A stretch of 64,000 nucleotides of DNA, from IMG/VR virus record IMGVR_UViG_3300045988_129289; one strand, written 5' to 3'. The notes beneath the pieces are model-generated. The model was not told the origin of the DNA and did no database searches. It saw only the letters and a list, made by a program, of their open reading frames with translations. This document shows, one piece after another, positions 1 through 57,584 of the stretch. This DNA is from a virus. The translations under genes were made by a program, and so were the position numbers. Every line of letters begins with the position of its first letter. The first letter of the stretch is position 1.

Positions 1-1
1 G

Positions 2-1123
2 GATGCTAAAGAGCATGGAGCGCCAAAGAATGGATTGTGGGTATCAGAGAAAAAAGATATTGGGTTTATGAATGATAGACCAATATTAATATAGCTTCAA
101 TAGATTCTTAAGAAACCAATGGTATAGATTGGAGATATCCCTGCCCAGGGTAAAAATAAACTGCGCAACCATATACTTAGAGAAGCTGAATAGTCTGGAG
201 CAGATGCAGTTAAGTTTTAGGGAATTAAGGATAATAAAACTTCTAACCAGAATGTTACATTTATCTTTGATCCTGTTGCTTCTACCACAATTCCCCCGAA
301 AGAAATGAGAGCATTTAAGGAATAGATAACTAAGCTAACACCATAGTAGATAGGATAGGAAGCTAAGGAGGGTGTTAGAGATGTAATGATGTGGTATAGA
401 AGTCCACAGTGGGAAACTAGGGCGGTTTCACGCGGATTGACATAGGATGAAATAAAAGCCTTTCAGGACTTACAAGGAAAAGTTTTGTCTTAGAAACTCC
501 CTATGGATAATAGATTTGGACCGGTAAACATTATAGTAGAAGATATGGGTAAAGGTGTTTAGGGATACTCCCAATTCTTGCCCAAGAGTATACACACTAA
601 TCAATATCCATCTGAACATTTTGTAGCTATATCTAACTAGGCTTCTCATCCTTACTATACAGCAGTACATGAAGGAATGCATCATGGTACTTTTAATATT
701 GGTTCGACTGGGTGGACTGCACCTCAAATGACTTTATCTCCAATTGAATAGAGTGCCTTAGACAAAGTACTTAGGAATGCCGAAGCTCTTAATGCTAGAC
801 TAGAAATAGATCCTAATAAGTTTACTACTTTAATGAATAAACTACAAACTAAATATGGAATGTCTGAAGTGGAAGCTAGACATTGGATCGGGGATAGAGT
901 AAAGTATTGGCAGACTCCTCAAGAGTCAAGAGCCAGAGCAGGTGCGGTAAATTAGTACAAAAGAAATCACCCAAATGCATCTGAGGAAGAACTTACTCAA
1001 ATAGATAATGCTAGATAGATATTTACTAATGAATCTCTTAATAACTTATATGGAAAAACTATAGCCTTAGGAGCCCCAGTAGTAGGAGCATTGGCTTCCA
1101 ATCAACTAGGAAATGGAGAATGA
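2..1123 (+). CDS. 3' part of a large virion-associated protein with HExxH metallopeptidase motif; TAG-recoded (gene starts upstream of window)
   Basis: frame 2 open from window start to TGA at 1121 when TAG is sense; >20 in-frame TAG, no TAA/TGA; HEGMHH encoded at 668-685. Confidence 0.6.
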
Positions 1124-1405
1124 CTTCTCATCACTTATTAGAGATAACACCTATACGTTTGATTGCATTAAAATAATATTTGCACATAATACTTATTATA
1201 GTGAAAAAGTTATTACTAATAATTTTAAACAAGCTTTGATTCTCTTTAAAGCTTGTCCATGTTTGTTGCCCTCTTAGTATGCTTGCTTTTTCAAAGATGG
1301 CAAAGAAATAGCTCGGTGTACTATAGATTGGACTAATAAAGATGTAAAAGAATATTTAGATAATATTCCATATAAAATTGAGATTAATTTAAATGATTTA
1401 ATATA

Positions 1406-2392
1406 ATGGCTGAATTATTTACAACATTTGAATCAGTATCTCCACCAGATATAGTTACCCCAGATGTGCAATAGAATTACCAGGAAATATAGTTAATGTA
1501 GTAGCCTACTTAGGAAGTAGAAGACTCGAATATAGACTGGAGTTTCCTAGATGTACCTGAATAGGACATTCAGGAACCTACTTTTAATTATACTCCTTCT
1601 AAATCTGAGAATACCTCTTCTGCAGCTCAGAAAGTAATTAACTAGGCTAGATAGTTCTTAGGTGGAAAGTATAGTTGGGGAGGTTCTAGTCCAAGTTCTG
1701 GATTTGATTGTAGTGGACTTATAAAATATGTCTTTAATAGTGTAGGAATTAATCTTCCTAGGACTGCAGCTTAGCAGGGAAAAGTTGGACAAGAAATTAA
1801 TCTATAGTAGGCATAGCCTGGAGATGTAATCTGGTTTGGAAGTAAGAATAGTCCTAGTGGTTAGCATATAGGACTTATAAGTAGAATAGATAATGGATAG
1901 ATATATATTATAGATGCAGCTGGAAAGAAATTAGGAATAGTTGAAAGACTACTTCCGAATCTAAAAATTAAAAGTGTTAGAAGAATCCTAGGAACTATAA
2001 ACGATAGTCAATTTAATCAATACGCTTTAAACTTCTTTAAAAATAAAGGATTATCAGATGCTTAGGCTAGAGGAATAGTAGGAAATCTAATGTAGGAAAG
2101 CAGGGGAAAGCACACTGCAATAAATAAATCTAGTAAAGCCTTTGGGTTGGCACAATGGTTAGGTCCTCGTAAATAGAGGCTCATTCAAAAGTATGGAATG
2201 AATCCCACTGTATCATAGCAGTTAGAATTTATATGGGAAGAATTAAATTCTACAGAAAGTAAAGCTTTTTAGAAACTACTTAACACTAATACTATTTCTG
2301 ACGCCACTAAAGTATTTGCAAAGCACTTTGAGAGAGCTGGTAATAATGAGATGAATATGAATAAACGAATTAAATTCGCATATTAGACGTGA
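1406..2392 (+). CDS. peptidoglycan hydrolase: NlpC/P60 (C40) peptidase domain + lysozyme-like domain; TAG-recoded
   Basis: ATG 1406 to TGA 2390; translation with TAG=Q gives GFDCSGL...PGDVIWF...H(I)GL (NlpC/P60 Cys-His) then GNLMQESRG...AFGLAQW lysozyme-like motif; TAG aligns to conserved Q after LPRTAA. Confidence 0.7.
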
Positions 2393-2426
2393 GAATACCA
2401 TTATAACAATTAAAATTTTGTACAAT

Positions 2427-2876
2427 ATGTAGTTAGTTCCAAAAAGACAAATTGGAGGGAATCTTTATAAGATTGATAACACTATGCCCCAAATAACTCA
2501 AAGATATGTAGCTCTACTAAATAAAGGTATCCCAGCTTAGGCTGCTTTTGATACAGCCCATTTATCTCTAATAGAGGATGGAAGGCCTAATAAATTTTAT
2601 TCATTTGGTAAAAGAGCAACCAACTTGCAGGATTGGACTAAGAATGCATCGGATTCTTTGACTGTTGGGCGATATAAAAATTTATAGAATGTACAGAACT
2701 TTAATCAATTTAAGTAGAAATTAAAATAGAAAAGGTATAATAACAGACCTGCATTCTATAATATAGAAATGAACCGAGGAAGAAATAAAGATAAATAGAT
2801 TATTAATTAGTGGAATAAAGAATAGGGATTAAATCCAATAGCACAGATATATAATTATAATATTAATTAGGTATAA
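2427..2876 (+). CDS. hypothetical late protein, TAG-recoded
   Basis: open frame with ~14 in-frame TAG only, ends TAA 2874. Confidence 0.4.
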
Positions 2877-2901
2877 GAGCTATAATTATTCTTATAATAT
2901 T

Positions 2902-3123
2902 ATGAAAGAATTTCTTAGGTTGATGATTACTTCACATTCTGGCATTAGTAGCAAAAGAGTCTGTGGAGTAATTGGATTCCTTATTATTATTTTCGTATTA
3001 GTCTATTGTACAGTATCTTCTATTCAAGCCCCTCTAATGATAGAGCCTTTTATATATGCAGTATGTTTATTACTAGGAATAGATTCAGTAACTGGAATTT
3101 GGAAAGGTAAAATGAATGATTAA
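2902..3123 (+). CDS. small two-TM membrane protein, holin-like
   Basis: ORF track 73 aa, two hydrophobic helices, positioned between muralytic enzyme and next late gene; no TAG inside. Confidence 0.45.
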   Translation: MKEFLRLMITSHSGISSKRVCGVIGFLIIIFVLVYCTVSSIQAPLMIEPFIYAVCLLLGIDSVTGIWKGKMND

Positions 3124-3997
3124 GTTTTAGAGAGGTGGCATTGCAGTGTAGGATAATACTAGGGTTGTTAGAAAACAACCTCTAGCTTTTCGACTTACTA
3201 AAGAACAGTAGGCTAGAATTAAGTAGAGAAAATTATAGGAAGCTGCTAGAAGAAATCAAGCAGTAATCTATGATGCAGACAAAGCTAAATACTATTAGAA
3301 TATGTAGAACTTCTATAATAATAACTTCTTTGGATATGGAGTGTTTGGAAAGCAAACTCATTATGACCCTTCTAAAGAAGAGGATTAGAAGAAAATATAG
3401 TCTAATTTTAATTATGCTAAAGATAATGTAAAGAACATAGGAACTTCCCTTATAACTGTAGGACCTGCAAGTTCTTTTAAAGGTGTTTTGCCTTCTGTTT
3501 CCAGAAGAGTTACAGTAGGTAAGTTATCCGCCTTAACTCCTTATAAAATAGGATAGGGTTCAGAAGCCCTTGTAATAAGAAATTCTCCTACTACGGTAGG
3601 AAAGATAACTTAGGTTGGAAGTGGTGAAATGTTGAAAAGGAATGCAATTCCAAATTCCCTTCCTCTAAAGTTTGTGGGATATGTAAGAGATGGATCTAAA
3701 AGATTTCCAACTTTCATTTAGAAGAAAGTAAAAGTCCTTAGTGAAAAGACTTTTCCAAAGTATGTTGGTAAACTGGATAAAGCTATGTAGAAGAGTGGTT
3801 TTAGAAAAGTCAATGATCCAAATGTACAGTATAGAGCATATACCAATGGTACCGTAGTAGTTGATGATGTATCTCCTGGAAATGTAGGATTAACTTTCTT
3901 TAAAAAGCCTAAACTATTGGATTTTAATCTTCAAACTGTCCCAAGTTGGACTAGTTAGGGATTTACTCTTAAAAATGGAGGTAAATTTAAATCTTAA
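3116..3997 (+). CDS. hypothetical late protein, TAG-recoded
   Basis: ATG 3116 (overlaps holin-like stop), frame 2 open to TAA 3995 with ~15 in-frame TAG (checked at 3209, 3224, 3956). Confidence 0.5.
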
Positions 3998-4019
3998 TAG
4001 TTTTTAACAATATTCTATT

Positions 4020-4049
4020 TTTGATTTTTAGAAGGAGAATATATATTTG
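4020..4049 (+). promoter_or_regulatory. Bacteroidetes-type promoter: TTTG (-33) ... TATATTTG (-7 box TAnnTTTG)
   Basis: TTTG at 4020-4023, TATATTTG 4042-4049, 27 nt before ATG 4076; same TATATTTGCTAT string recurs at 9967. Confidence 0.35.
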
Positions 4050-4075
4050 CTATGTAATCAAATAAGCAAAATAAC

Positions 4076-4516
4076 ATGGATAAAACTATTAATTTTAACG
4101 AACTTCCAGATCTTACGAATATATTAGGTTTATGTATTCCAGACGGAACTGTAGAGACATTTGAAAGTGATGATTTAAAATGTCATTTGGAAAAAGATAA
4201 CGGTCATCTTAAAATAGAGATTGAAGCTAATATCCCTGAACAAGACGGAGAATTTGATGATTCTGCCACTAAAGAAATTGTTGAGGAATATAAAGAGGGA
4301 ATTAAGGCTCTTGATGATGATTTATTCGTAGAAATAGTCGACGAACTTAAATCTAAATTGGATTTAACTAGATTTAATGAGCTTCTTGATTTAGAAAGCT
4401 TTGATGAAGACCAAGCACAAGAAGTGGAAAAAATGATTGATATTTCTACAGATATTATTTGTTTGCATCTTCAGCATAAAATTCAAGGTATGGTTGAACT
4501 TTATGAAAGGTTTTAA
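4076..4516 (+). CDS. acidic hypothetical protein
   Basis: ORF track 146 aa, D/E rich. Confidence 0.55.
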   Translation: MDKTINFNELPDLTNILGLCIPDGTVETFESDDLKCHLEKDNGHLKIEIEANIPEQDGEFDDSATKEIVEEYKEGIKALDDDLFVEIVDELKSKLDLTRFNELLDLESFDEDQAQEVEKMIDISTDIICLHLQHKIQGMVELYERF

Positions 4517-4555
4517 TTTTAAGGTTGGCTACTCCTTTTAAAAAGTAGCACTTAT

Positions 4556-4630
4556 TGCCCCATGGTGTAATGGTTAGCACAGCGGTCTCTAAAACCGCAC
4601 GTTTCAGTTCGAATCTGAATGGGGCGACCA
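4556..4630 (+). tRNA. amber suppressor tRNA, anticodon CUA (decodes UAG), Gln-like; CCA encoded
   Basis: cloverleaf: acceptor TGCCCCA/TGGGGCG (U1-G72), D GTGT-AATGGTTA-GCAC, anticodon stem GCGGT/ACCGC loop CTCTAAA (CTA at 4589-4591), T arm TTCAG-TTCGAAT-CTGAA, A73, CCA 4628-4630. Confidence 0.85.
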
Positions 4631-4646
4631 GTTAAAAATATGTATT

Positions 4647-4910
4647 ATGAGAAGTGAATTAATGAAATTGATTAAGTCAGGTAGATTTCCAAATGAAAAG
4701 AATAGAGTTTGGACTATGTGTCAAATTGCACTGCATATGGCTACCCTAGCTGCTGATGAAGCAGAGAAACTAAAACTAACAGATGAACAATTCTATATTA
4801 ATTTTGAAGATGCACTTAATATTTTATCTGTTAGAGATCATTCTGGCAATCCAGAACAAGTTAAAGAATTTAAGGAAACAATTGAATCATTTGAAGCTGA
4901 TCCAGAGTAA
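4647..4910 (+). CDS. hypothetical protein
   Basis: ORF track 87 aa. Confidence 0.5.
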   Translation: MRSELMKLIKSGRFPNEKNRVWTMCQIALHMATLAADEAEKLKLTDEQFYINFEDALNILSVRDHSGNPEQVKEFKETIESFEADPE

Positions 4911-7955: not shown

Positions 7956-8028
7956 GAGACTATTCATCTAACGGTTAGGATACTGTGCCTTGGCTAAGTC
8001 ACCTGGGTTCGACTCCCAGATAGTCTCC
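7956..8028 (+). tRNA. tRNA-like element with aberrant anticodon arm (possible pseudo-tRNA)
   Basis: perfect 8-bp acceptor GAGACTAT/ATAGTCTC, D-arm ATCT-AACGGTTA-GGAT, T arm CTGGG-TTCGACT-CCCAG, but no canonical 5-bp/7-nt anticodon arm (only GTGCC/GTCAC with 8-nt loop TTGGCTAA). Confidence 0.3.
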
Positions 8029-9209: not shown

Positions 9210-9464
9210 ATGTTAAAGAATTTTAAAGCTATTATCACTACAAACAAAGATGCACAGGTTGGTCAGAATCAGCAGAAGGCTGTTGTAAATCTCCCATTTG
9301 AATTGGAGCTTACAATTGACAAGAACAACCAGATTCATGACATCCAGCCCAGAACTTTCCGTGGCGTGGATTTATTCTCCAAGTATCACGGTCGCACTAT
9401 GGATTGGTGCTCAGACTTAGTAGAGGAGATGCGTGGACTTTACAAGGAGAATATCAATGGCTAG
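9210..9464 (+). CDS. hypothetical protein
   Basis: ORF track 84 aa. Confidence 0.45.
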   Translation: MLKNFKAIITTNKDAQVGQNQQKAVVNLPFELELTIDKNNQIHDIQPRTFRGVDLFSKYHGRTMDWCSDLVEEMRGLYKENING

Positions 9465-9867
9465 AAAGTTTGATGCTGAGGTACATATTGTAGGATTAAA
9501 TACATTGCGCCACCAGCTAGCTAAAACTCCCTTTACAAGTGATACAATCCGAGAAGGATTCAAGAGTTGTGGAATACCATCAAATCTAGTATTTTGGAAG
9601 GTATTTTCTCACTCAGGGCTTGTAAAGCAAATTGGAGACGACTTGTATTGCTTTAATAGTCCTAATAAGCCTATTCATTTTCATAAGCTTAGCGAGATTT
9701 ATAAGGAATACCAAAAGAAAGTGAATACCTATTATAATAAATGGTATGATAAGAAGAGACGTAAGGATGTACTTAAAAGACCTGATATACAAGCGGCAAT
9801 CAGACTCTTAAGAGAGAATGGTATGGATGTTGTACTCAGTGTCCAAAAGATATGTCTTTATATATAA
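9433..9867 (+). CDS. hypothetical protein
   Basis: ORF track 144 aa. Confidence 0.5.
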   Translation: MDFTRRISMARKFDAEVHIVGLNTLRHQLAKTPFTSDTIREGFKSCGIPSNLVFWKVFSHSGLVKQIGDDLYCFNSPNKPIHFHKLSEIYKEYQKKVNTYYNKWYDKKRRKDVLKRPDIQAAIRLLRENGMDVVLSVQKICLYI

Positions 9868-27335: not shown

Positions 27336-28682
27336 ATGTGTGGAATATTTGGTATTGTTACAAAGAGCACACGGTCTTTTGACTTTCCAACTTTCTGTAC
27401 ATTAGGTATCGCTAATGACAGTAGAGGAGGTGACTCTTGTGGATATTTTATTGATGGACACTACGAGTATGGAGCGAAAGGAAATGATAAGTGGTTTCAG
27501 TTCTTTTTCCAAGACAATAAGTTCCTTAATGAACTTAAAATGAGTTCAGTAGCTTTTGGTCATTGTAGAAAAGCATCTGTCGGAATCATTGACGAGACGA
27601 CTGCTCAGCCAGTGGTACTTACTGATGCTAATGGAAAGGTAGAATACGTTCTTATGCATAATGGAACTATCTATAATTATGAGGAGTTAGCTAATAAATA
27701 CATACCAGACATTGACATTACTGGTATGACTGATTCTCAAGTAATGGCTAGAATTTTCTATCGTTCTGGATACAAGGCACTTAGTGAGTACAACGGCGGA
27801 GCAGTGTTTGCAATTGCAGATTACCGTGGTGGAAAACCAAAGGTGTTGCTCTTTAAAGGAGCCTCTAAGAAAGACAAGTGGGACAAGAAGGAAACTGATG
27901 AACGCCCATTGTACTTCTGTGTTGATCCTGTAAAGGGAGAGTTAATCTTCTCTTCTATCGCTTCCTATTTGATGTCCCTTAGACATAAGCTCACAACCTG
28001 GATTTTAAATCCAAATTGTCTCTATGAGTTTAATGGTAGAGACCTAATTGCTGTCGAGGAAGTTTCTAGAGCTAATGCTTACCAAAGGAAGGAAACCATA
28101 TATGTAACTCCATCTAAATATGGTGGAAAATATTGGGGAGAATTTGGGCTGGAGGAAAGTGATGGCAGTCTTTATGACGATTTCATTTCAACTAATCAAG
28201 TAGATAATACTTATCATGGAAAGGGCAAAAAGCTTCAAGGACGAGTGCTACTTAATAAGTATGGAATGATGCTGGATGAAGCTCCTAAAAAGGCAACATA
28301 TAAGGAGATATTCTTTTGGGATGGAGTTGCTCTTAAGAATGTTGCATGCTTTCGATTTCTTACAGTCCTTAAGAAGGACAGTAAGCTCGAAGATAAAGAG
28401 TTTAATAAGAAGTTTAAGAACCTTATAAGGTACTTAAGTGTTGATGGTGTATATCATGAGAAGGATGTATGGTACAGAGCTACCTCTCCAACCAAGAGGA
28501 TTCCATTTACAGGAATACTGAACATGATTACATCAACTTCTTCTACAGAATTTTTTGCTGGAAGCAGAAGAACTACTAAATACGGTAGGACTTCTGATGA
28601 GGCATTTAGTTCTCTAGAGGAAGCTAAATTGGATGTTAATTTCAAAACAATTAAAGAAGAATGCAAGTCTTTGATGAAATAA
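27336..28682 (+). CDS. class II (Ntn) glutamine amidotransferase domain protein
   Basis: N-terminal MCGIFGI (Cys2 nucleophile as in PurF/AsnB/GlmS); 448 aa. Confidence 0.65.
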   Translation: MCGIFGIVTKSTRSFDFPTFCTLGIANDSRGGDSCGYFIDGHYEYGAKGNDKWFQFFFQDNKFLNELKMSSVAFGHCRKASVGIIDETTAQPVVLTDANGKVEYVLMHNGTIYNYEELANKYIPDIDITGMTDSQVMARIFYRSGYKALSEYNGGAVFAIADYRGGKPKVLLFKGASKKDKWDKKETDERPLYFCVDPVKGELIFSSIASYLMSLRHKLTTWILNPNCLYEFNGRDLIAVEEVSRANAYQRKETIYVTPSKYGGKYWGEFGLEESDGSLYDDFISTNQVDNTYHGKGKKLQGRVLLNKYGMMLDEAPKKATYKEIFFWDGVALKNVACFRFLTVLKKDSKLEDKEFNKKFKNLIRYLSVDGVYHEKDVWYRATSPTKRIPFTGILNMITSTSSTEFFAGSRRTTKYGRTSDEAFSSLEEAKLDVNFKTIKEECKSLMK

Positions 28683-29893
28683 CTAAAAGATGGGTGAGCT
28701 CTCGAAATTGTGCGAGGATTGTCATCCAACAACTTCCGGAACAAGTTATCTTCGGATATACTAGTAAGCCTGATAGAGTTGTTAGAGTCCTTATAACTAC
28801 TTCTAATGGATTTAATAACTACTTTGAAACGGATTTAAATCTATATAAGGGGAAACTCTTGTATAGTAGGAGAAATGGAATATACTTTTCTCCTATCAAT
28901 CACGATGAGGATTTTATACTCGCAGAACAACTCGTAAAGGGTCTCGGAGGTTTTCCCTACATCCTTACTAGAAGATATGAAGCTGTAGAGAATTTCGATG
29001 CTTTTAAGGGAAAGCAAGAAATTAAAGACCAGGAAACTTTGTATCCCTTAGCAAAATATTTAAAGTATACTTTTGGACTGGAGTTTGAAACATCTCAAGG
29101 ATATGTGCCTGAGGACGTATGTTATCGAGATGGATTAATCCCATTAAGGGATGGATCCATTACTGGACCAGAGTATTCTACCGTTGTATTGAAGGGAGGA
29201 GAAGGACTTTCTCTTCTTCATCAGCAAGTAGAGACGCTCAAAGAGTATACTAACTTTAATAAGGAATGCTCTCTACATGTTCATCTAGGAGGTTACCCTC
29301 TTAAGCCTGATACTATCTACAATCTTTATCTTGTATGTAGAACTATTGAATCTGAGCTAGAAAATATACTTCCTGCTTTGACTTTCAATAGTGCTAGATA
29401 TAAGGATAATGGTAAAGACTATTGTAAAAAGCTTGCTTTGTATAGTAGTTTTGAAGATATGTACTCGCATTTAGTAGGAAGGCAATTCTTCGGAAGTTTT
29501 ACCCAAGCTCATCCTGATGATAGGGAACGAAAAAGAAAGTGGAATATACCAACCCGTTATTATTGGTGTAACTTCATTAATGCTCTTTGCTATCAGGTAA
29601 ATAAAACCATTGAGTTCAGATTTCTTCGTCCAACCTATAGCTTTAAAAAGATCCTCCTATGGCTTTACATATTCAACGGCATTTTAAGATATGCCGAGGA
29701 GTACTATGTGCCGGGGAGTCGTGTTAATCTAGCTAGGATTATGAATAATTGCTATCCTTCTGATTTGGCAAAAGAACTTTGCCTTGGTATAAAGAAGCTT
29801 TGGGCACTTAGTGTAAATCAACGTGAAAACGGAGATCCTATTGGAGCTAATGTTTGGATGGAGGAAGAATTGTTTAACAGCTTAAAGATTTAA
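28661..29893 (+). CDS. GS-like carboxylate-amine ligase (Amidoligase_2-like) paralog 2
   Basis: GLEFETSQG, GPEYS, CSLHVHLG motifs parallel those of 26542-27333. Confidence 0.5.
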   Translation: MQVFDEITKRWVSSRNCARIVIQQLPEQVIFGYTSKPDRVVRVLITTSNGFNNYFETDLNLYKGKLLYSRRNGIYFSPINHDEDFILAEQLVKGLGGFPYILTRRYEAVENFDAFKGKQEIKDQETLYPLAKYLKYTFGLEFETSQGYVPEDVCYRDGLIPLRDGSITGPEYSTVVLKGGEGLSLLHQQVETLKEYTNFNKECSLHVHLGGYPLKPDTIYNLYLVCRTIESELENILPALTFNSARYKDNGKDYCKKLALYSSFEDMYSHLVGRQFFGSFTQAHPDDRERKRKWNIPTRYYWCNFINALCYQVNKTIEFRFLRPTYSFKKILLWLYIFNGILRYAEEYYVPGSRVNLARIMNNCYPSDLAKELCLGIKKLWALSVNQRENGDPIGANVWMEEELFNSLKI

Positions 29894-29899
29894 CAAAGT

Positions 29900-30481
29900 A
29901 TGGCAAAACAGGTATTAGAAATTGAAGTTCCAGATGGTAAAAAAGCTGTTTGGAAGGATGGTCATGTTGTCTTCGAAGATGTAGATACTATGGAAAGTAT
30001 CAAGACTATCGAGGACGCTGCTCAATTTCTTGCGGACAAGAGGATCTGTGAGGATATTCTGGACTCACTGTCTAGACTTCCTAAGGACTCATTTGAGTGG
30101 AAGATAGCTGCTTACAGAGCAGTAGTCGCAGCTGTAACCTATAATGAACAGAGGCATCTTACCACTGGAGAACGTTGGTTTCCTACTATTGAGTTCTGTC
30201 GACCTGGAAAGCTTAAGAATTGTTGCGGTGACATCGTTGTAGGACGAATCAAATCAGAAGGAGAAGAGTTCAATGTCGTGGGCGGTGACGCTGCTGACGG
30301 CACGGCTGCGGGTCTCGGTCTCTTCTACTCGCTTTGCGGCGTGTCTAACTCCTGGACGAATTTCGGCTTCCGGTCGGTTGGTTCAAAGAAAGCCGCCCTG
30401 TACATTTCTAAGCAATTTGGAAGACTTCTGTTTGAGGTTAGTTATGGTGGTACAAACTGTGATTGGAGATGGATAGCATAG
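29900..30481 (+). CDS. hypothetical protein
   Basis: ORF track 193 aa; ends TAG followed by TAA two codons later. Confidence 0.5.
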   Translation: MAKQVLEIEVPDGKKAVWKDGHVVFEDVDTMESIKTIEDAAQFLADKRICEDILDSLSRLPKDSFEWKIAAYRAVVAAVTYNEQRHLTTGERWFPTIEFCRPGKLKNCCGDIVVGRIKSEGEEFNVVGGDAADGTAAGLGLFYSLCGVSNSWTNFGFRSVGSKKAALYISKQFGRLLFEVSYGGTNCDWRWIA

Positions 30482-30557
30482 TCATAATCTGTATATCAGT
30501 AGTAGCACTATTCATTGTAGACACAATTTGTGACACTATTAAGGATTGTAAGAAAAA

Positions 30558-32906: not shown

Positions 32907-33006
32907 CCTTTGTTAATTTTGTAAATTAACTAAGAATTAGTATCTTTATAAGTCTACTTGATATGGGTATTAAATGTACTCTATTGAGTAGACTTTTTTA
33001 TCATTT

Positions 33007-33090
33007 GGAGGGATAGCACGTAATTGGAAGCGTCACAGTCTTCTAAACTGTTGCCATATGGCCTTTAGGGTTCGAATCCCTGTCCCTTCA
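33007..33090 (+). tRNA. tRNA with anticodon UCU (Arg AGA) but class II-like 14-nt extra arm and A73
   Basis: acceptor GGAGGGA/TCCCTTC, anticodon stem ACAGT/ACTGT loop CTTCTAA, extra arm TGCCATATGGCCTT (GCCAT/ATGGC hairpin), T arm TAGGG-TTCGAAT-CCCTG. Confidence 0.6.
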
Positions 33091-33155
33091 CATTGTTATT
33101 AATTTTTGATGGGCATTCTTCCCTTGTATGTTTAAAAAGAAATGATTTATGTATT

Positions 33156-33758
33156 ATGTAGAGCAAATGGTTTGAAGAAAAAGAAAATTTAGAGAATATG
33201 ATTCTCGTACAGAAAATGAGTTATGAAGACATAGGTAGACATTATGGTTGTAGTGGCTCAAATATTAAGAAAGTTGCTATTAGAATTGGCATTCAACTCC
33301 CTTAGAGAAGAAAACCAAAAGAAAGTGAAACTTTCAATAAGGGAACTGGACAGAAGTATTACTGTCTGAACTGTGGAAAGTTGTTAAATCAAGACAATGG
33401 TGGTAGCTACAAGCATAAATTTTGTGATAACAAATGCTAGAGGGAATATCAGCACAAAATTGGGTATCAGAAAATACTAGATGGAGATTCATCTATAATG
33501 AGGGCTAATTACTCTCCACATGCTTTTAAGGACGATATACTTCAGGAACAAAATGGAGTATGTGCTATATGTGGTTCAAAGCCTGAGTGGAATGGCAAAC
33601 CTCTAGTATTTATTTTGGATCATATAGATGGTCATGCATCTAATAATATTAGAACTAATCTTAGATGTATATGTCCAAACTGTGATTCTCAATTAGACAC
33701 CTACAAATCTAAAAACAAATGCGGAGAAAGGAGTTACTATCGCTATCATAAATACTAG
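33156..33758 (+). CDS. HNH homing endonuclease with N-terminal HTH, TAG-recoded (three in-frame TAG)
   Basis: in-frame TAG at 33159, 33303, 33438; C-terminal LDHIDGHASNN...NLRCICPNCD HNH motif (ORF track 33498-33758 is its tail); HTH MSYEDIGRHYGCSGSNIKKVAIRIG. Confidence 0.6.
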
Positions 33759-33784
33759 GATATAACTAAGCAAAAAGATAATGA

Positions 33785-34072
33785 ATGAATGAATTAGTGT
33801 TTAAAGAACTAAATCTCAATTTAGACATAAAGGTATGTACTATAGGGGGAGAAGAAATCAACCTTACAAGGAATGAATTTAATCTTCTTGAATTTCTTAT
33901 AAAGAACAAGAACAAAATACATTCTAGACAGGAAATCCTTAATAATGTATGGGATTCTAAAGTTTCTTTAAGAACTGTAGATACTACTATGTCGAGATTA
34001 CGTAAAAAAATGAAAAATTTAGGCAAGTATTTAGTAACTAGATCAGGATTTGGATACGGTATTTTGGAATGA
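33785..34072 (+). CDS. stand-alone OmpR/PhoB-type winged-helix DNA-binding protein
   Basis: LTRNEFNLLEFLIKNKNKIHSRQEILNNVW...TVDTTMSRLRKKM...YLVTRSGFGYGI matches trans_reg_C. Confidence 0.6.
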   Translation: MNELVFKELNLNLDIKVCTIGGEEINLTRNEFNLLEFLIKNKNKIHSRQEILNNVWDSKVSLRTVDTTMSRLRKKMKNLGKYLVTRSGFGYGILE

Positions 34073-35643: not shown

Positions 35644-36645
35644 ATGAAGAAATTTATTTTCATCATGAGTTTGCTGTTCACTCTGTGTAGTTTTACCTAT
35701 GCGCAAACAGCGTATGAAGAATCTAAAATCCTTGATAACACTTCTATTAGTGTTGTAGGTGGAGTAACTACTCCTCTGGACTTTAACTCAGTATTTCCTG
35801 TAAATGGAGTTGCTGGTATTAAGTTGCAGAAGAACCTTACTCCTGTATTTGGGTTTAACGTTGAAGGACTTGCCTCCTTTGGCGATAATCACTATGGTAG
35901 TGCTTCTACTGTAGTAAGGTCTATTAATACTGGATTGAATGGAGTTATTAACTTCTCTAACCTGCTGTGTGGATATAATGGAACCCCTCGTAAGTTCGAA
36001 GTAAGTACTGAGACTGGTATTGGCTGGATGCATAGTTGGACGGGACACTGTAACTATCTTACATCTAAAACTGGAATGGTATTATCATTCAATCTAGGTA
36101 AGGAGAGAGCTCATTCAATCATAGTTAATCCTGCAGTATACTGGAATCTGAATAGGACAGATCATGTAGAGTTCAATAAAAATTATGCTCAGCTTGGTGT
36201 CTTGATTGGATGGGTATACCACTTTAAGACTTCTAATGGTACAAGAAGTTTTAAGACGTATGATATTACATCAATGAACAACGAAATTAATTCTCTCAAG
36301 AAGGATTTGGCAAAGAAACCTACAGAAATTGTAAAGGAGGTCGTTAAGACCGAAGTTGTTACTAATACGATTGGTAACACAGTGATTTTCTTTGCACAAA
36401 ATTCTGCAAAACTTACTGGAACCGCAATGTCTGAATTATCTAAGATTCCATCTGGTTCTAAGGTAAGCATTATTGGTTCTGCATCTCCAGAAGGTTCCTC
36501 TAATTACAATCGGAAGTTGTCAGAGAAACGTGCAGAAGCTGTTTCCAAATTCTTAACCGAAAATGGTGTAGTTGTAGAGAATTGTATTGGAACTGGTGTT
36601 ACTGACACTACTAGTGGTCGTGTAGCAATAGTTACTATTAAGTAA
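35644..36645 (+). CDS. OmpA-family outer-membrane protein (signal peptide, beta-barrel region, OmpA C-terminal domain)
   Basis: MKKFIFIMSLLFTLCSFTYAQ; C-terminal VIFFAQNSAKLT...IIGSASPEGSSNYNRKLSEKRAEAV. Confidence 0.65.
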   Translation: MKKFIFIMSLLFTLCSFTYAQTAYEESKILDNTSISVVGGVTTPLDFNSVFPVNGVAGIKLQKNLTPVFGFNVEGLASFGDNHYGSASTVVRSINTGLNGVINFSNLLCGYNGTPRKFEVSTETGIGWMHSWTGHCNYLTSKTGMVLSFNLGKERAHSIIVNPAVYWNLNRTDHVEFNKNYAQLGVLIGWVYHFKTSNGTRSFKTYDITSMNNEINSLKKDLAKKPTEIVKEVVKTEVVTNTIGNTVIFFAQNSAKLTGTAMSELSKIPSGSKVSIIGSASPEGSSNYNRKLSEKRAEAVSKFLTENGVVVENCIGTGVTDTTSGRVAIVTIK

Positions 36646-36824: not shown

Positions 36825-36915
36825 TACCTCCTTATATCAGTGGTAGAAGTTTAGCAAGGTCTATATTGCATAGATAGTAGTGAGACTGTCAGTGGTTCGA
36901 ATCCACTAGGAGGTA
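36825..36915 (+). tRNA. tRNA-like element (~91 nt) with ambiguous central region
   Basis: acceptor TACCTCC/GGAGGTA perfect, T arm AGTGG-TTCGAAT-CCACT, but D and anticodon arms cannot be assigned canonically. Confidence 0.3.
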
Positions 36916-36952
36916 CTACCTGTTCCTGTAAACATAAAAAAAAAAGAAGAAA

Positions 36953-38227
36953 ATGACTGATTTTAATATGAGTAAATTGTGGCTCGGTAAAGATGGATAT
37001 TACCGAGATGTAAACGGCAACAAGATTGCCTAGAAAGGGTAGCCCATTTCTGGTGCTGCTTGGAGATATTTAGCAGGAAAATATGGAAGGGAAGTTGCCA
37101 ATAGAACCTCAATGAATACTAGAAATGGAAACATATTCTAGAATGGACGTTGGCGTTTTAATGATGTCAAATCTTCTAAGCAAGGGAAAACTGCTACATG
37201 GGATGAAGCAGCTTCTAGAATTGAGGAGAATGCTAAGGCCGCTGGAGCTAGAAAAACAGCAACTGGCTATACACAGAGAAACCCTTTCAATAATAAAGAT
37301 ACCTATCTAAATCAAGATACAAAGAATAAAGCCATGAAGGCTTATAGAGCACGACAGAAATCATAGACTTCTGCTGAGAATCCTGATGAATTTAGTTGGA
37401 GTGATCTAAATCCTTTCAAGAAAGGTGCTTGGGAAGGCAACTGGGATAGTGCAGCAAAAAACTTCATTGATTCCTTTAAATCAATTCCCGATATTTGGAG
37501 AAAGGGGTATGCTAGAAGAGGCGAAATGTATAACAATGTTCCTCAGAGTGTATTTGAACCAAAACGAAACACAGGTGTTTTGGCACGATTCAATGATACT
37601 CTTGGAGATATTTCTAGAACTGGAAATGCTGTTCTGGGAGGAACTATTGGAACTGCCTTGCAGCTCTTACTACCATAGAAGGTTGAGAGAGAAGCTAGCA
37701 ATCTAGGACAATATCTAGATCTAGGTAAAGATGTTAACTCTGTCAGAAGTTATTTAACTCCAGGAGAAGAAGGAATATTGCCAGATGATCCTAGGAATAA
37801 GGGATTTGCTGATTAGAATTTTGCCTGGACTGGGCTAGACGAATAGTAGAGAAGAAATATTAACGATGATGCCAACTTTGCTATGGCTATCCTTGGAACT
37901 AAAGGTATGAAGGGTGGAGTCTCTAGACTTAAGACTGGAGTCTCTGGAATGGTAAAAGATGGAGTAGGTACTACGCTAAAGAATAATTGGAAACCTATTA
38001 TGTCTCATACACCAGGTGCCGCTAACCTTTATTAGGCTGGAAGTGCACTTAATTCTGTAAGAAGGGCATTAGCCCCTAAGAGACTAGGAGGAGCAGAAGG
38101 AATTGGCAGTAGATCTGCAAATGTAGGAAAAGCTGCATTTCAGGGGCTTATGGCTTCAGATCCTACTATGGCACTATACCCTTATGCACATAGCAGTTAT
38201 ATGGTAAATTTATCTAATAATAATTAA
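36953..38227 (+). CDS. hypothetical virion protein, TAG-recoded
   Basis: ATG 36953, frame open to TAA 38225 with ~12 in-frame TAG. Confidence 0.55.
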
Positions 38228-38229
38228 AT

Positions 38230-39240
38230 ATGAGTATTAAAAAGAAGGCACAATATTTAGGTGAGGGAGTAAATTGGTTAAAAGGTCATGGTTAGATGAT
38301 ACCAGATTACTTCGGAAACCTGATGAGACGAATTGGAGGAGGTGAGAGAGCTGTAGTTAGAGCTAGGCAAGCTTCTCCAGAATTAATTGCATCTAGAAAT
38401 AGTTAGAGAGGGGCTGAAATGAGTCATAATCTTGCAGCTCAAAGATATAAAGAAGCTTAGCAAGCAGAAAGTAAATTATTAGACAATACTAAAAACTGGA
38501 AGTAGCCTAATAGTAAAAGAAACGTAAAGAGAGTAAATGATGCTATGCGAAAAACAGATGAAGCTGAGAGAAATGCAATAACTGCATCATAGAGAAGTAG
38601 AGAAGCCTAGGAAGCTTTCAATAATACTAAGAGACAGGTTACTAATGATGCCCTAAAACAAGTTAGGAATAAGGGTATTAAAAGAACTCTTAAAACCGCT
38701 GGACTTGTAGGTGGTCTTGGTACTGGAGCTTATCTAGTTATTCCGAGAAATTCTAAATCACCTAGTGCTGCAGAGGAGACTCCATAGCAATATATGTATA
38801 GTCCAAATAATGGTTGGCAGGAGTGGAATCAGGAAACTGGTTAGTATGAAAATCAACAGCAAGGATTCGGAATAGATAGGTATGGAAATACTAACTACTA
38901 CGATGGAACAAATTGGCTAACTCCTGATCAGTATCTACAAGGCAGTAATGGTTACATATATAATAAACAAACTGGACAAATTATAGGTACGGCTGATGAC
39001 ACTATGGAAGCGTATAATAATGGCTATGACAATGTGTTTGATTATCGCGCTGCTAAAGCTGGTTACAATAGCCCAGAAGCTGTCAAGCAACTTCAAGAGA
39101 AACTTGGAATAAATGCTGATGGTAAGTGGGGACAGCAAACTTAGGATGCTTTCAATAAGACTGTTTCAAATTGGGCATAGCAATATGATCCTAACAGTTT
39201 ATTCTCTATATACTAGAGAAAGATGCAATTCGGATACTAA
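38230..39240 (+). CDS. hypothetical virion protein with C-terminal PG_binding_1-like peptidoglycan-binding repeat, TAG-recoded
   Basis: ATG 38230 to TAA 39238; ~17 in-frame TAG; GYNSPEAVKQLQEKLGINADGKWGQQTQDAFNK. Confidence 0.55.
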
Positions 39241-39253
39241 TGAAAAAAAAAAA

Positions 39254-40456
39254 ATGACACAAATAAATAAAGCACAGAGAGGAGCAATTCTCTAGTTTGG
39301 TAAGTTAGTAAATAAGGCTAAGTTAGCTTCAAATAGATTAGGGAGGATCTTTACGGGTGAAGCTGCAGCTGAAAAGAAATTAAACAAGCTTGCAAAGTAG
39401 AAAATATTGTAGTAGACAGGTAGTTGGAGACCTACATAGAAGATGAGAGAAATCAACTTAGAAGGGAAGAAGCAGTCCATCAGGGACGCAAAAGCCATGA
39501 GGAGTGCAGCTTCTAAGGCTGAACTCAAATGGATGTAGGAAAACTCTGATAAAGCTACTAAGGTTTACAAGAGTGGCGCTAGAGAATTTGGAGGGGATGC
39601 TAATAGACTCACTTTATAGAAAGTAAGGTAGGATGCAATGAAACCCTTCCTTGCGGATGAGGCTAAAAGAATACGTAGAAATAGGGCTGTAGCAACTGTC
39701 TTGCCTGTAGGTTTAGGCATTCCTGCCTACAACATACTAACTGGGAAAATATATGATAATGTATTTCCCTATGGATATTAGGATAAAAAGGCAAGTGATA
39801 AAGACAAGGGAGAAAGTTGGGTTGCGCGCATAAAAAAGTTTGGACCAGCTGCCTTTGGTATAAAATCAGATGCTAGAAAGCATTTTGACTAGATTGCTGC
39901 AGCAGATTTATCTGATCTAAAATAGAGGAAAGAAGCTGAAAGAATTTACTAGGGAGACTCCATTTTGCAGTACCCAATGGGTGGTGCTTCTTTGGAATAT
40001 GTATAGAATCGATTTAGAAATAGAACCGATTTCAATGACTTATATCTAGGAAGACCGCAAACATATAATACACTGGTTCCAAATACTGAGTATTAGTCAG
40101 TAAACTCTCATGAAAACCCTAAGATAGTTACTTATACTTTTGCAGACCCAATAATTAGGAATATGTTAAGAAGTCAAGGAAGGGATTTCAATCTCAAATA
40201 GAATGATATTGACCCTGATAAAGGCTATGGAGCAAGAGCAGTATCTGACCATAATGGGATTTTCGGAGATTTCGGAATAGTTAAAAATTAGTAGAATGGA
40301 GCTGGTAGATATAAAGAAGATTGGGATTTTCCATTATCTGGATTAACTCATAAGCTGGGATTAACTAGCTAGGTTATAATAGCTGATACTATACCTGGTA
40401 ATTAGCCAAGATAGAGTTATAGATTTGGAGAACATCACAATAGATCATAGATGTAA
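39254..40456 (+). CDS. hypothetical virion protein, TAG-recoded
   Basis: ATG 39254 to TAA 40454; >20 in-frame TAG (checked at 39293, 40448). Confidence 0.55.
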
Positions 40457-40471
40457 AAAAAAAAAATTAAT

Positions 40472-41272
40472 ATGAAGAAGATAATTAGATCAATTGGAAT
40501 GGCATTTATAGTATATTTGTCAATTTCCTTTATAGGGGCTTGCTTTGAGTTGTCTCTATTTATTTTTAGAGAGACCTTCTTAGATGAATTAATCTATTCA
40601 TTTGGAATCTCTATTGGACTACCAGATCTTATAGGGGAATATATTACTCCTAAATCAATTCCATGGGTAGAGGATATTGAAACTTCTATAGTATTTGGTA
40701 TTCCTTTGATAGGATCTCTGATATATCTTATTATGTCTTTGAGAAGAAAAAGTTTATTGATATTGCTATGTCTATTTGCATTACCAATATCAGCAAAGGA
40801 ACCTATTAAAGCGATCCCAAAGGGTGGTAGATATGCTATCCTTGTGGATTTCTCAAAGCCCTCTGGAGAAGATAGATTTAAGATATATGATTGTAAATCC
40901 CATTGTATCATATATTCTAGCGTGGTTCAGCATGGCAATGGGGGAGGAAGTACGAAGGAGAAGCCAGTATTTAGTAATAGGATAGGAAGTAACTGTTCTA
41001 GTCTCGGTTTATATAAAATCACTGGTTTTGGAAGAATGAATAGCTTTCCTATTAACTGCTTTAGACTTAAAGGGCTAAGCAGCACTAATTCTAATGCAGA
41101 AAAGAGAGGCATTGTTATTCATCCCACACTTAGTAGTTCTCTTCCATTTAAAATGCGTTACCTCCCATTGAGTGATGAAAGTCATGGTTGTTTTGGAGTA
41201 AGCTTTGAAACAATGAGGGTAATACGTAAATTGTATGGTAAAGGCGTAATATATTTATATGCTTTCCATTAA
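40472..41272 (+). CDS. L,D-transpeptidase-like (YkuD-type) protein with N-terminal TM helices
   Basis: ORF track 266 aa; GIVIHP...SHGCFGVS resembles YkuD catalytic HG...SHGC motif. Confidence 0.5.
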   Translation: MKKIIRSIGMAFIVYLSISFIGACFELSLFIFRETFLDELIYSFGISIGLPDLIGEYITPKSIPWVEDIETSIVFGIPLIGSLIYLIMSLRRKSLLILLCLFALPISAKEPIKAIPKGGRYAILVDFSKPSGEDRFKIYDCKSHCIIYSSVVQHGNGGGSTKEKPVFSNRIGSNCSSLGLYKITGFGRMNSFPINCFRLKGLSSTNSNAEKRGIVIHPTLSSSLPFKMRYLPLSDESHGCFGVSFETMRVIRKLYGKGVIYLYAFH

Positions 41273-44988: not shown

Positions 44989-45416
44989 AGCACCCATTCA
45001 ATCAGCAATCCTGCTTAGATAGGCTCAAAGGGGAGTATGATAAATACGGTAAGCTGATTGTTGCTTTCGACTTTGACAACACTATATATGACTTCCATAA
45101 TAATGGAGGTGATTATAGTGAAGTCATTGAACTTTTAAAAGAATGCATTAAACTAGAGTTTGATCTCATTCTGTTTACCGTGGATGAGGATCCTGATAAG
45201 GTATCTGAGAAGGTACGATGGCTGGTATCTAATGATTTATGGAACTACAAGAGTTCTCATTTCTTTGTTAATACTAGTCCAATATTTAGCGGATCCAGAA
45301 AACCCTATTATAATATTCTGCTTGATGATAGAGCGGGATTAGAAGAAAGTTATAACATTTTAAAACAAGTTGTAGATTATGCAAATTCTAAATTTAGTAA
45401 ATTTGGAGAAGAGTGA
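44985..45416 (+). CDS. small HAD-family phosphatase (DxDxT)
   Basis: LIVAFDFDNTIYDF motif I; sits between nadV and prs. Confidence 0.55.
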   Translation: MKHPFNQQSCLDRLKGEYDKYGKLIVAFDFDNTIYDFHNNGGDYSEVIELLKECIKLEFDLILFTVDEDPDKVSEKVRWLVSNDLWNYKSSHFFVNTSPIFSGSRKPYYNILLDDRAGLEESYNILKQVVDYANSKFSKFGEE

Positions 45417-57042: not shown

Positions 57043-57584
57043 ACACATCTGTAAGGGCAACTTTCAAGGATGGAACTTCTAAAGACTTTGCATCTATAGA
57101 GGAGGCTAGTAATGGTACAGGAATATCTGTTGCAGCTATTAAGATTAGGTGTAATAAGCCCGGAACTGGTGGAAAAGACAAGACTACCTTTGAATGGTTA
57201 AATGATACTACTGCTAGACACTATAGAGCCAAGAAATCCAAGAACAAAGGAGCAGGCTTAGAAGCAGAAGTTGTAAATAAACTGAAGGAGATTGGTTATA
57301 GCGGGGTATGTAGAGCTGCTGGAGAGTCTAAGAATTTAGATGCTTCTAAGGTCGATATCGCAGATATTAATCATGAACTTGAAGTAGCTATTCAGTGCAA
57401 GCATTATGCTAAATTTCCAAATTACTTTGACATAAAGGACGAGTGTACGGATCCTCGTGATTTTGTCTTAGTTTGGAAGAAATCAGCCCAAGCAGGAGAG
57501 AACAGTAAAGGAACAGTAGCTGTTCTTGATATAGACTTTTTTTATAGGTTATTAAAAACTTACCATGAATATGGAAACAAGTAA
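57015..57584 (+). CDS. PD-(D/E)xK nuclease with N-terminal DNA-binding module, contains in-frame TAG (homing-endonuclease-like)
   Basis: ATG 57015, TAG at 57030 in frame, TAA 57582; VDIADINHELEVAIQCK = D...E.K core. Confidence 0.45.

Follow-up and report, generated by a model that had tools for sequence, protein, structure and literature searches.

The window, i.e. the whole 64,000-nt stretch of DNA that was analysed, opens with a block of plus-strand genes (1-3997) in which four long frames are readable when TAG is taken as a sense codon. Smaller ORFs lie among these four, and a standard-code gene and a suppressor tRNA gene follow:

2..1123, plus strand, recoded gene 1, 3' 373 codons (16 in-frame TAG, stop TGA)
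1113..1406, plus strand, possible but uncertain small gene of 97 codons (1 in-frame TAG at 1275; read from the sequence, no homology support)
1406..2392, plus strand, recoded peptidoglycan hydrolase, 328 aa (20 in-frame TAG versus 11 CAA/CAG, stop TGA)
2427..2876, plus strand, recoded gene 3, 149 aa (9 TAG, stop TAA)
2902..3123, plus strand, 73-aa ORF with two hydrophobic segments (no TAG, readable in the standard code)
3116..3997, plus strand, recoded gene 4, 293 aa (14 TAG versus 6 CAA/CAG, stop TAA)
4076..4516, plus strand, acidic 146-aa protein in the standard code, separating the recoded block from the suppressor tRNA (no family match)
4556..4630, plus strand, suppressor tRNA with anticodon CUA (U1.G72, A73, encoded CCA)

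The peptidoglycan hydrolase was the best characterised of these genes. Its N-terminal NlpC/P60 (C40) endopeptidase domain (PF00877 NLPC_P60, 73.1 bits, cut-off 23) and C-terminal Phage_lysozyme2 domain (PF18013, 93.4 bits) both scored above the Pfam gathering scores and ran straight through in-frame TAGs. Its PHROG matches were tail and tail-lysin families, its NlpC/P60 matches in the PDB reached 2e-17, and C102 (within FDCSG), H154 and D170 were invariant across 24 family members. Pfam and PHROGs gave no match for the ORFs at 2-1123, 2427-2876 and 3116-3997. The first-pass annotation had placed an HNH protein in this block; none of the four ORFs in 1-3997 matched an HNH family in Pfam or PHROG, and the gene at 2-1123 carries HEGMH, a HExxH rather than an HNH motif. 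In relative L002 (97% identical), the ORF of this gene reaches ~258 nt further upstream of window position 1. The gene at 2427-2876 was found in L002 and L005, and other genes take its place in L001 and L003. The gene at 3116-3997 had 514 homologues and is very common across gut metagenomes. Since the available homologues are 95-99% identical (best 120 of 514), the AlphaFold2 model of one of them, P0273, was poor (mean pLDDT 35) and unusable. The genes are tightly packed: the TAA of the 1113-1406 ORF overlaps the ATG of the hydrolase gene, and the ORF at 2902-3123 overlaps the start of 3116-3997 by 8 nt. The topology of this 73-aa ORF appears holin-like; family searches with Pfam and PHROG returned no match.

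Under the standard code, neither strand of 1-3997 held an ORF of at least 100 aa. The claim that only one 73-aa ORF is found there was right for the plus strand (2902-3123) and wrong for the minus strand, where the longest standard-code ORF of the region (85 aa, 470-727) lies. When only TAA and TGA were treated as stops on the plus strand, the four long genes were recovered at exactly the coordinates first proposed, ending, again as proposed, on TAA or TGA (TGA, TGA, TAA and TAA, in order). Together these frames contain 59 TAG, 0 TAA and 0 TGA in 1143 codons, and the probability of finding no TAA or TGA, calculated from their off-frame frequency (0.075) in the same DNA, is ~2.5e-39. Coding coverage of the first 4 kb, by ORFs of at least 100 codons, rose from 0 with the standard code to 0.94 with TAG as sense, compared with a mean of 0.03 and a maximum of 0.25 in 500 shuffles, so the gain in coding density expected by the first-pass annotation was borne out. 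Reading TGA as sense gave a coverage gain of 0. Reading TAA as sense also raised the raw ORF coverage, which is an expected artefact in this 35%-GC DNA and is contradicted by the in-frame counts and the domain matches.

The frames themselves are real. Substitutions relative to other contigs cluster at codon position 3 and synonymous changes exceeded non-synonymous changes in 9/10 gene-by-relative comparisons (for example, 52 versus 28 codon changes between the gene at 2-1123 and L003), demonstrating that these frames are coding and under purifying selection rather than decayed DNA. If the block consisted of decaying pseudogenes, or of TAG stops accumulated through faulty assembly or sequencing, this would explain why the region lacks a standard-code ORF of at least 100 aa and why three of the four genes lack a recognisable family. 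Against this, TAG alone breaks the frames and TAA or TGA never does (P ~1e-39), the frames and many TAGs at identical positions are kept in independent contigs of several metagenomes, the substitutions are chiefly synonymous and in third positions, and the NlpC/P60 catalytic residues are invariant. Non-functionality was rejected on the in-frame stop counts and the substitution pattern, and we consider its probability practically nil.

TAG use across the window was bimodal, accounting for 33-75% of Gln codons in seven genes and 0 in ~45 genes. This per-gene tally agrees with the earlier statement that recoded genes are interleaved with standard-code genes on the same strand. The TAG-free genes include helicases, a primase, Sak4, an exonuclease, NAMPT, PRPP synthetase and amidoligases. 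The first-pass annotation was correct about the recoding of 1-3997 and did not include a further recoded island at 36953-40456. This island, a tRNA-like gene directly 5' of it and several homing-endonuclease-like ORFs with in-frame TAGs are located as follows:

10482..11204, plus strand, HNH-motif homing-endonuclease-like ORF (3 in-frame TAG, one inside the motif, ENLqVLCPNCH)
20636..21127, plus strand, NUMOD1-containing homing-endonuclease-like ORF (5 in-frame TAG; weak match)
33156..33788, plus strand, Endonuclease VII/HNH-like ORF (4 in-frame TAG; weak match)
36826..36916, plus strand, tRNA-like gene carrying CUA (long variable region; anticodon loop non-canonical, 6/8 nt)
36953..38227, plus strand, second island gene 1, 424 aa (9 TAG)
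38230..39240, plus strand, second island gene 2, 336 aa (11 TAG; central hydrophobic segment)
39254..40456, plus strand, second island gene 3, ~400 aa (~20 TAG; C-terminal half variable among relatives)

HNH_3 and HNH matches of the ORF at 10482-11204 were under the gathering scores, and the stretch 32997-33783 around the Endonuclease VII/HNH-like ORF is missing in L085 and L086. The C-terminus of second island gene 2 carries a weak peptidoglycan-binding domain (PG_binding_1 and PG_binding_3, just under the Pfam gathering thresholds); Pfam and PHROGs returned nothing for genes 1 and 3. The window also contains a group I intron (ARAGORN/Rfam scan) and tRNA genes comprising 21 ARAGORN calls and one extra from Rfam.

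Residue identity at TAG was assessed from codon swaps against the DNA of relatives, from the residues that homologues carry at TAG columns and from the tRNA. These independent tests, all of them comparative, support the proposed reassignment of TAG to Gln in the recoded genes. Among the window TAG codons that changed, 27/40 were CAA (21) or CAG (6) across all relatives, and 15/16 were CAA or CAG in the four close relatives. CAA was the most frequent replacement and requires a two-nucleotide change. In the second island, TAG was exchanged for CAA/CAG at 12/28 positions, and 13/26 in the reverse direction. For the hydrolase, a search for representatives with homologue P0001 as the query and a table of 253 distant domains (<55% identity) ranked Q first at TAG columns (19.6%, background 4.3%, 4.5-fold enriched). 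One detail did not survive: the TAG in LPRTAA-x-Q, thought to occupy a conserved Gln position, aligns to M/A/Q/D/D in five solved homologues and is thus a variable column, the invariant Gln being the next codon, an ordinary Gln codon.

The suppressor tRNA gene is likewise real. It was called by ARAGORN, scored 59.1 bits against Rfam RF00005 and folds into a cloverleaf with the loop CUCUAAA, whilst 15/21 stem pairs show compensatory covariation in syntenic copies of relatives. It starts 559 nt after position 3997, matching the ~560 nt given by the first-pass annotation. The suppressor copies all keep U1, in a weak pair with G72 or A72, as well as A73 and the CUCUAA of the anticodon loop. The 1-72 pair and A73 are as in the phage tRNA-Gln, unlike the phage tRNA-Trp (A1-U72, G73). 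We propose that the tRNA accepts Gln on the basis of the codon evidence together with U1.G72/A73, and not of overall tRNA similarity. The latter was discarded as a guide to the amino acid, as it places the window suppressor closest to tRNA-Trp and that of L001 closest to tRNA-Gln. GlnRS recognises U35 and a weak 1-72 pair, and known E. coli amber suppressors are charged by this enzyme, namely supE (tRNA-Gln CUA) and su7 (tRNA-Trp CUA mischarged with Gln). The phage tRNA shares with these U35 within a CUA anticodon, weak pairing at the first acceptor position and a body that is partly tRNA-Trp-like, yet with codon evidence for Gln. However, supE and su7 suppress with low efficiency, and in their host TAG has stayed a stop codon, whereas TAG here is the majority Gln codon in recoded genes. 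As a separate observation, the suppressor gene occupies a fixed slot and diverges far faster than its flanks (64-74% versus 91-97% identity).

That TAG is sense with another meaning (Trp, pyrrolysine, or Ser/Leu/Tyr by way of the CUA-bearing gene at 36826-36916) or is ambiguous seems very unlikely. The suppressor body and anticodon stem are nearest the phage's own tRNA-Trp(CCA) (53/72, compared with 43/72 for tRNA-Gln), ARAGORN names the suppressor tRNA-Pyl, the tRNA-like gene at 36826-36916 has a long variable region, and about one-third of the changed TAG positions face non-Gln codons, chiefly in the most divergent relative. However, no TAG-to-TGG exchange occurred among 126 changed positions (block 1 and the second island), W (0.2%) and Y (1.8%) were rare at TAG columns led by Q, CAA was the commonest replacement, and the acceptor end of the suppressors is of the tRNA-Gln type. 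For pyrrolysine, a scan of ~55 ORFs yielded no Pyl synthesis or PylS domains (pylS/pylBCD), TAG lines up with codons for Gln, and 'Pyl' is the ARAGORN default name for any CUA anticodon.

The source of the window is probably a ~175-kb gut phage of the Zeta group within the crAss-like assemblage. A nucleotide search of GenBank phages with the window returned only short matches (tRNA and small pieces in crAss-like records) and no close annotated relative. Contigs of relatives are gut-phage sequences of ~160-175 kb, within the 145-192 kb range given for Zeta crAss-like phages, and among annotated phages the crAss-like ones, probably those of the Zeta group, come nearest to them. The portal and TerL of L001 match between them the crAss-like families phrog_6547 and phrog_6681, although the best annotated tblastn matches of its TerL, which are crAss-like TerL, reach only 28-29% identity, and no MCP was seen. 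In L001, a portal with 26 TAG and a split TerL with 13 + 6 TAG adjoin the recoded block. The likeness to crAss-like code-15 phages that was first suggested is apt, given these TerL and portal matches (PMC7886860).

Considering the account as a whole, we are highly confident that TAG has two readings in this one genome, with the recoded genes placed behind a suppressor tRNA. Recoding follows gene content, as the cell-wall hydrolase and the L001 portal/TerL are recoded and replication genes keep to the standard code. No internal TAG occurs in the genes for replication and nucleotide metabolism or in others that are presumably early, so the standard machinery of the host could translate them. TAG serves as the main Gln codon in the block at 1-3997, the island at 36953-40456, the homing-endonuclease-like ORFs and the portal/terminase of relatives. 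Full-length products of these genes would have to wait until the tRNA at 4556-4630 has accumulated, been charged with Gln, presumably by host GlnRS, and out-competed release factor 1. A scan of ~55 window ORFs turned up neither a release factor nor an aminoacyl-tRNA synthetase domain, a point against this account. Recoding could then act as a translational timer or lock, confining lysis and virion proteins to late infection. We infer the late status of the recoded block from its gene content and from the recoded portal/terminase beside it in L001. The notion that all lysis genes are locked does not hold, since several envelope-active genes are in the standard code (a glucosaminidase at 21227-21748, a YkuD transpeptidase, an OmpA-like protein and the holin-like 73-aa ORF). 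Where an early gene ends in TAG, a back-up TAA or TGA follows 1-3 codons on, which suggests that TAG is read both ways at different times.

Alternatively, recoding may be real with no timing lock, the suppressor being chiefly a weapon that reads through host TAG stops and so impairs defence or host proteins, and the phage TAGs a neutral by-product that builds up where tolerated. Such a role has been proposed for crAss-like phages, and some Zeta phages retain suppressor tRNAs without any recoding (PMC7886860, PMC12386605). Rapid divergence of the suppressor between conserved flanks is what an arms race would predict, and the standard-code envelope-active genes also fit. However, bimodal TAG use is not predicted by neutral drift with a constitutive suppressor, the recoded genes fit together functionally (cell-wall hydrolase, portal, terminase and homing endonucleases), and the back-up stops of TAG-ending early genes likewise count against it. 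We give a role chiefly as a weapon scarcely any credence and retain the two TAG readings behind a suppressor tRNA.

Partial code-15 use in late/lysis genes has been published before (Yutin 2021, Borges 2021/22, Peters 2022), and an identical model has been described (PMC7886860; bioRxiv 10.1101/2021.08.26.457843). Zeta crAss-like phages have genomes of 145-192 kb and partial code 15 in late genes (Yutin 2021 PMC7886860; Babkin 2025 PMC12386605). Shared with these are the ~160-175 kb size of the relatives, many tRNAs including a CUA suppressor, a group I intron, homing endonucleases, a human-gut source, TAG reassignment in part of the genome with replication genes in the standard code, and a relative whose TerL and portal match crAss-like families. 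In contrast, the nearest annotated TerL is just 28-29% identical here, at least two separate recoded islands share a strand with standard-code genes, and the suppressor is joined by a further CUA tRNA-like gene. Stop-codon recoding is described as regulating lysis/late genes in Lak, crAss-like, Agate, Jade, Sapphire, Garnet and other clades (bioRxiv 10.1101/2021.08.26.457843). As in the phages of Borges et al., some of the heaviest recoding falls on a lysis-type cell-wall hydrolase, a suppressor tRNA lies beside a recoded cassette, early/replication genes follow the standard code, recoding extends to homing-endonuclease ORFs and alternatively coded modules are scattered over the genome. Unlike in those phages, the 'code-change module' (release factor + aminoacyl-tRNA synthetase) was not seen in this window, and recoding spares the holin-like ORF and several other envelope enzymes. 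For crAss-like phages, code 15 has been proved at the peptide level by metaproteomics (Peters et al. 2022, PMC9523058); these phages share the human gut and the reading of TAG as Gln with the present case, with peptides as evidence there and comparative evidence here.

The window thus adds one more clear case of the published model, with early genes in the host code and lysis/virion genes tRNA-locked, and its TAG recoding raises no new question. For annotation, the reading of TAG as Gln should be confined to the recoded genes; gene calling with the standard code misses the cell-wall hydrolase, its three neighbours and the three-gene second island. The fast-diverging suppressor, the odd second CUA tRNA-like gene and the TAG + back-up stops might merit comparative study. 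A code switch that is modular and under an arms race is a rather doubtful extension: if both suppressors are functional, separate recoded modules, among them the island of envelope-associated proteins just behind the second CUA gene, could be unlocked by separate suppressors or, alternatively, suppressors could diversify to evade host anticodon nucleases or other tRNA-targeting defences. The gene at 36826-36916 was labelled 'tRNA-??? (ct)' by ARAGORN and was not called as a tRNA in the Rfam scan of the window. Only three sequence variants of this gene turned up; its 80-nt homologues in L085 and L086 were called by ARAGORN as tRNA(CTA) with a 7-nt loop.

Positions 1-3997 (+ strand) hold long reading frames that are broken by TAG alone. 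The longest standard-code ORFs in this block encode 85 aa (- strand) and 73 aa (2902-3123, + strand), so that the single 73-aa ORF described in the first-pass annotation holds for the plus strand only, and no part of the first 4 kb is covered by a standard ORF of ≥100 aa. When TAG was taken out of the set of stops, the four genes proposed in that annotation were recovered, all ending on TAA or TGA.

Recoded genes in the block (in-frame TAG codons read as sense)
2-1123, + strand: ORF, 16 in-frame TAG, stop TGA
1406-2392, + strand: ORF, 20 in-frame TAG, stop TGA
2427-2876, + strand: ORF, 9 in-frame TAG, stop TAA
3116-3997, + strand: ORF, 14 in-frame TAG, stop TAA

Their 1143 codons include 59 TAG and neither TAA nor TGA, whereas TAA or TGA occupies 7.5% of positions when this DNA is read in its other two frames; at this off-frame rate, the probability of finding none is ~2.5e-39. 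Coverage by TAG-sense ORFs was 0.94, while 500 shuffled versions averaged 0.03. Reading TGA as sense gave no gain in ORF coverage. Reading TAA as sense inflated ORFs everywhere in this 35%-GC DNA and was not diagnostic. Differences between the window and its metagenomic relatives fell mainly on codon position 3, and synonymous exceeded non-synonymous change in 9/10 gene-by-relative comparisons, the exception being gene 2 of a second recoded island (36953-40456) against relative L085. Stop-codon asymmetry, conservation and synonymous bias together exclude the possibility that the block consists of pseudogenes or is an artefact.

Four independent lines of evidence were used for the meaning of TAG: the DNA of relatives, distant homologues, selection and the tRNA. 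In a codon-by-codon alignment of the four block genes with five relatives, window TAG was aligned to TAG in 186 cases; where the codon had changed, it was replaced by CAA (21), CAG (6) or another codon (13), and never by TGG. Among four close relatives, 15/16 changes were to Gln codons. Since CAA lies two nucleotide changes from TAG, this pattern is selective rather than mutational. Distant homologues of the cell-wall hydrolase encoded at 1406-2392 were represented by 253 aligned domains of <55% identity (150 representatives from a whole-library search). Gln was the commonest residue in the TAG columns (19.6% versus 4.3% elsewhere, some homologues possibly coming from recoded phages themselves) and ranked first, once tied, in 7/13 well-covered columns. 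The earlier claim that TAG is reassigned to Gln is therefore upheld by both the replacements in relatives and the residues in homologues, and these codon and residue tables disfavour any other amino acid. One detail of the claim failed: the TAG of the LPRTAA-x-Q motif, previously taken for a conserved Gln, faces M/A/Q/D/D across five homologues with solved structures and Gln in only 42/199 of the wider set; the invariant Gln comes one codon later and is encoded in the ordinary way.

The hydrolase itself is a two-domain enzyme (NLPC_P60, 73 bits; Phage_lysozyme2, 93 bits; both above gathering scores), as first annotated, with C102, H154 and D170 invariant across the family and matches to PHROG tail and tail-lysin families as well as to solved NlpC/P60 structures. 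The other three genes had no family matches in Pfam or PHROGs. ORF 2-1123 carries an HExxH motif and, by comparison with a 97%-identical locus (L002), starts ~258 nt upstream of the window edge. An HNH gene had also been placed in the block; none of its four ORFs is one. In four relatives (L008, L009, L010 and L012) the hydrolase homologue matches query residues 1-200 only and the frame runs into a different ORF of ~370 codons, representing either another C-terminal domain or an insertion replacing the lysozyme domain.

The suppressor tRNA expected ~560 nt downstream was found 559 nt after the block, at 4556-4630, with anticodon CUA, a canonical cloverleaf fold and the anticodon loop CUCUAAA. 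Across six syntenic copies from relatives, compensatory changes occurred in 15/21 stem pairs, and the copies retained A73, the weak pairing of U1 with G72 or A72, and the CUCUAA of the anticodon loop. The phage's own tRNA-Gln(UUG) likewise has U1-A72 and A73, and its tRNA-Trp A1-U72 and G73; over the whole body, the window copy of tRNA(CUA) is closest to tRNA-Trp, a similarity that is not decisive. GlnRS identity elements include U35 and a weak 1-72 pair, and E. coli su7 is a tRNA-Trp-derived CUA suppressor charged with Gln. Because of these identity elements and the su7 precedent, charging of tRNA(CUA) with Gln is plausible.

Use of TAG was bimodal across the window: in seven genes it made up 33-75% of Gln codons, and in ~45 it was absent. 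TAG-free genes included those for helicases, primase, Sak4, exonucleases, NAMPT, PRPP synthetase and RNase H, the amidoligase/GATase cluster, and SPFH, OmpA-like and YkuD proteins. Several envelope enzymes also kept the standard code, as did, within the block, the holin-like 73-aa ORF.

Further TAG-containing genes and flanking standard-code genes
36953-40456, + strand: second recoded island, three genes with 9, 11 and ~20 in-frame TAG
35644-36645: OmpA-like gene, standard code, flanking the second island
40472-41272: YkuD L,D-transpeptidase gene, standard code, flanking the second island
10482-11204, 20636-21127 and 33156-33788: homing-endonuclease-like ORFs (HNH motif, NUMOD1, Endonuclease VII-like), 3-5 in-frame TAG each

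The interleaving of recoded and standard-code genes on one strand, described in the first-pass annotation, was confirmed. The second island, which that finding had missed, has standard-code genes around it on its own strand and is conserved in relatives with the same exchange of TAG and CAA/CAG; its gene 2 encodes a protein with a hydrophobic stretch and a weakly matching peptidoglycan-binding domain. Among the homing-endonuclease-like ORFs, one TAG falls within the HNH motif, and the stretch 32997-33783 is missing from L085 and L086, as expected of a mobile element. Four standard-code, presumably early genes (29900-30487, 56032-57054, 18126-18407 and 9210-9473) have TAG as their first stop and a TAA or TGA 1-3 codons further on. 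Such pairs resemble tandem 'back-up' stops and would fit a TAG that acts as a stop early and is read through harmlessly late.

The best-supported account is the published model in which late expression is timed by the change of code (bioRxiv 10.1101/2021.08.26.457843; PMC7886860). Early genes would be readable in the host's code, and in lysis, virion and homing-endonuclease genes TAG would act as a lock that opens once the phage has produced its suppressor tRNA and this has been charged with Gln. The alternative that the suppressor is an anti-host weapon and the recoding neutral is less likely, as the sharply bimodal use of TAG argues against neutrality. Release factor 1 would also have to be overcome; the ~55 window ORFs scanned contained neither a release factor nor a synthetase domain.

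The lineage is very abundant: its near-identical proteins number in the hundreds in metagenomes, and its contigs measure 160-175 kb. In relative L001, a portal gene with 26 TAG and a large terminase gene that is interrupted (13 + 6 TAG) lie directly upstream of the block on the other strand, the best annotated matches of the terminase being those of crAss-like phages (28-29% identity). Given these matches, a size of ~175 kb, and the 22 tRNA genes and one group I intron in the window, the phage probably belongs to the Zeta group of crAss-like phages (PMC7886860). The L001 terminase (2244-4847) is split into 200-aa and 574-aa ORFs matching successive parts of one TerL profile, a split suggestive of an intron or intein, which Zeta phages are reported to have. 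TAG recoding, and its presence in phages of this kind, is already described in the literature, with protein-level proof for other crAss-like phages (PMC9523058). Public gene calls for the lineage translate through TAG, giving full-length 328-aa and 293-aa database proteins, and L001 is flagged as failing translation under table 11. The first-pass finding is correct but ordinary. Potentially new are a fast-diverging suppressor tRNA within conserved flanks and a second CUA tRNA-like gene ahead of the second island.

The suppressor is 64-74% identical between genomes (46/72 to 50/68 versus the copies in L001, L003 and L005) within flanks that are 91-97% identical (400-nt upstream flanks; downstream, those of L001 and L003 only). 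In the diverging copies (window and the syntenic sites in L001, L003, L004, L005 and L014) stems are compensated and U1, A73 and the anticodon loop alone are kept, a pattern suggestive of either exchange of the cassette or diversifying selection. The CUA-containing tRNA-like gene lies at 36826-36916, 37 nt upstream of the second island. Its homologues in L085, L086, L088, L089 and L091 are 80 nt long, and ARAGORN calls those of L085 and L086 tRNA(CTA), their loop having the usual 7 nt. In the window and in L087/L092, an 11-nt insertion results in a long variable arm and a 6/8-nt loop. A single compensatory change was seen in the T-stem, and the Rfam tRNA model made no call for this gene.

A further tRNA-like element at 7957-8028, called by ARAGORN at low stringency only ('?(Lys|Gln)(tt)'), has an L001 homologue (18238-18309) called tRNA(UUA), i.e. 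ochre-suppressor-like; the window copy retains its acceptor, D and T arms, but its anticodon arm is rewritten. A tRNA-Thr(UGU) at 18111-18183 (Rfam, 61.7 bits; clean cloverleaf) was absent from the ARAGORN calls. The 'tRNA-Pro(UGG)' call at 20324-20413 is unusually long (90 nt), and the 85-nt 'tRNA-Arg(UCU)' call at 33007-33091 has a class-II-like long variable arm and no Rfam call; tRNA-Arg calls vary in the corresponding part of relatives' loci, with CCT (L085) and TCT (L086) of 75 nt each and TCT (L087) of 85 nt. The group I catalytic intron (22095-22346; RF00028, 87 bits) is preceded by a standard-code ORF with a glucosaminidase domain (21227-21748), and it overlaps a zinc-finger ORF on the - strand (22273-22914) at the latter's 3' end. 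An abiF RNA family match (14958-14995; RF03085, 50 bits versus a gathering score of 37) falls in a tRNA-rich region. Finally, a standard-code cluster at 25926-29893 (glutamine amidotransferase, COOH-NH2 ligase, GATase_6 and amidoligase genes), together with NAMPT (43438-44988) and PRPP synthetase (45379-46188) further along, is an auxiliary metabolism module.
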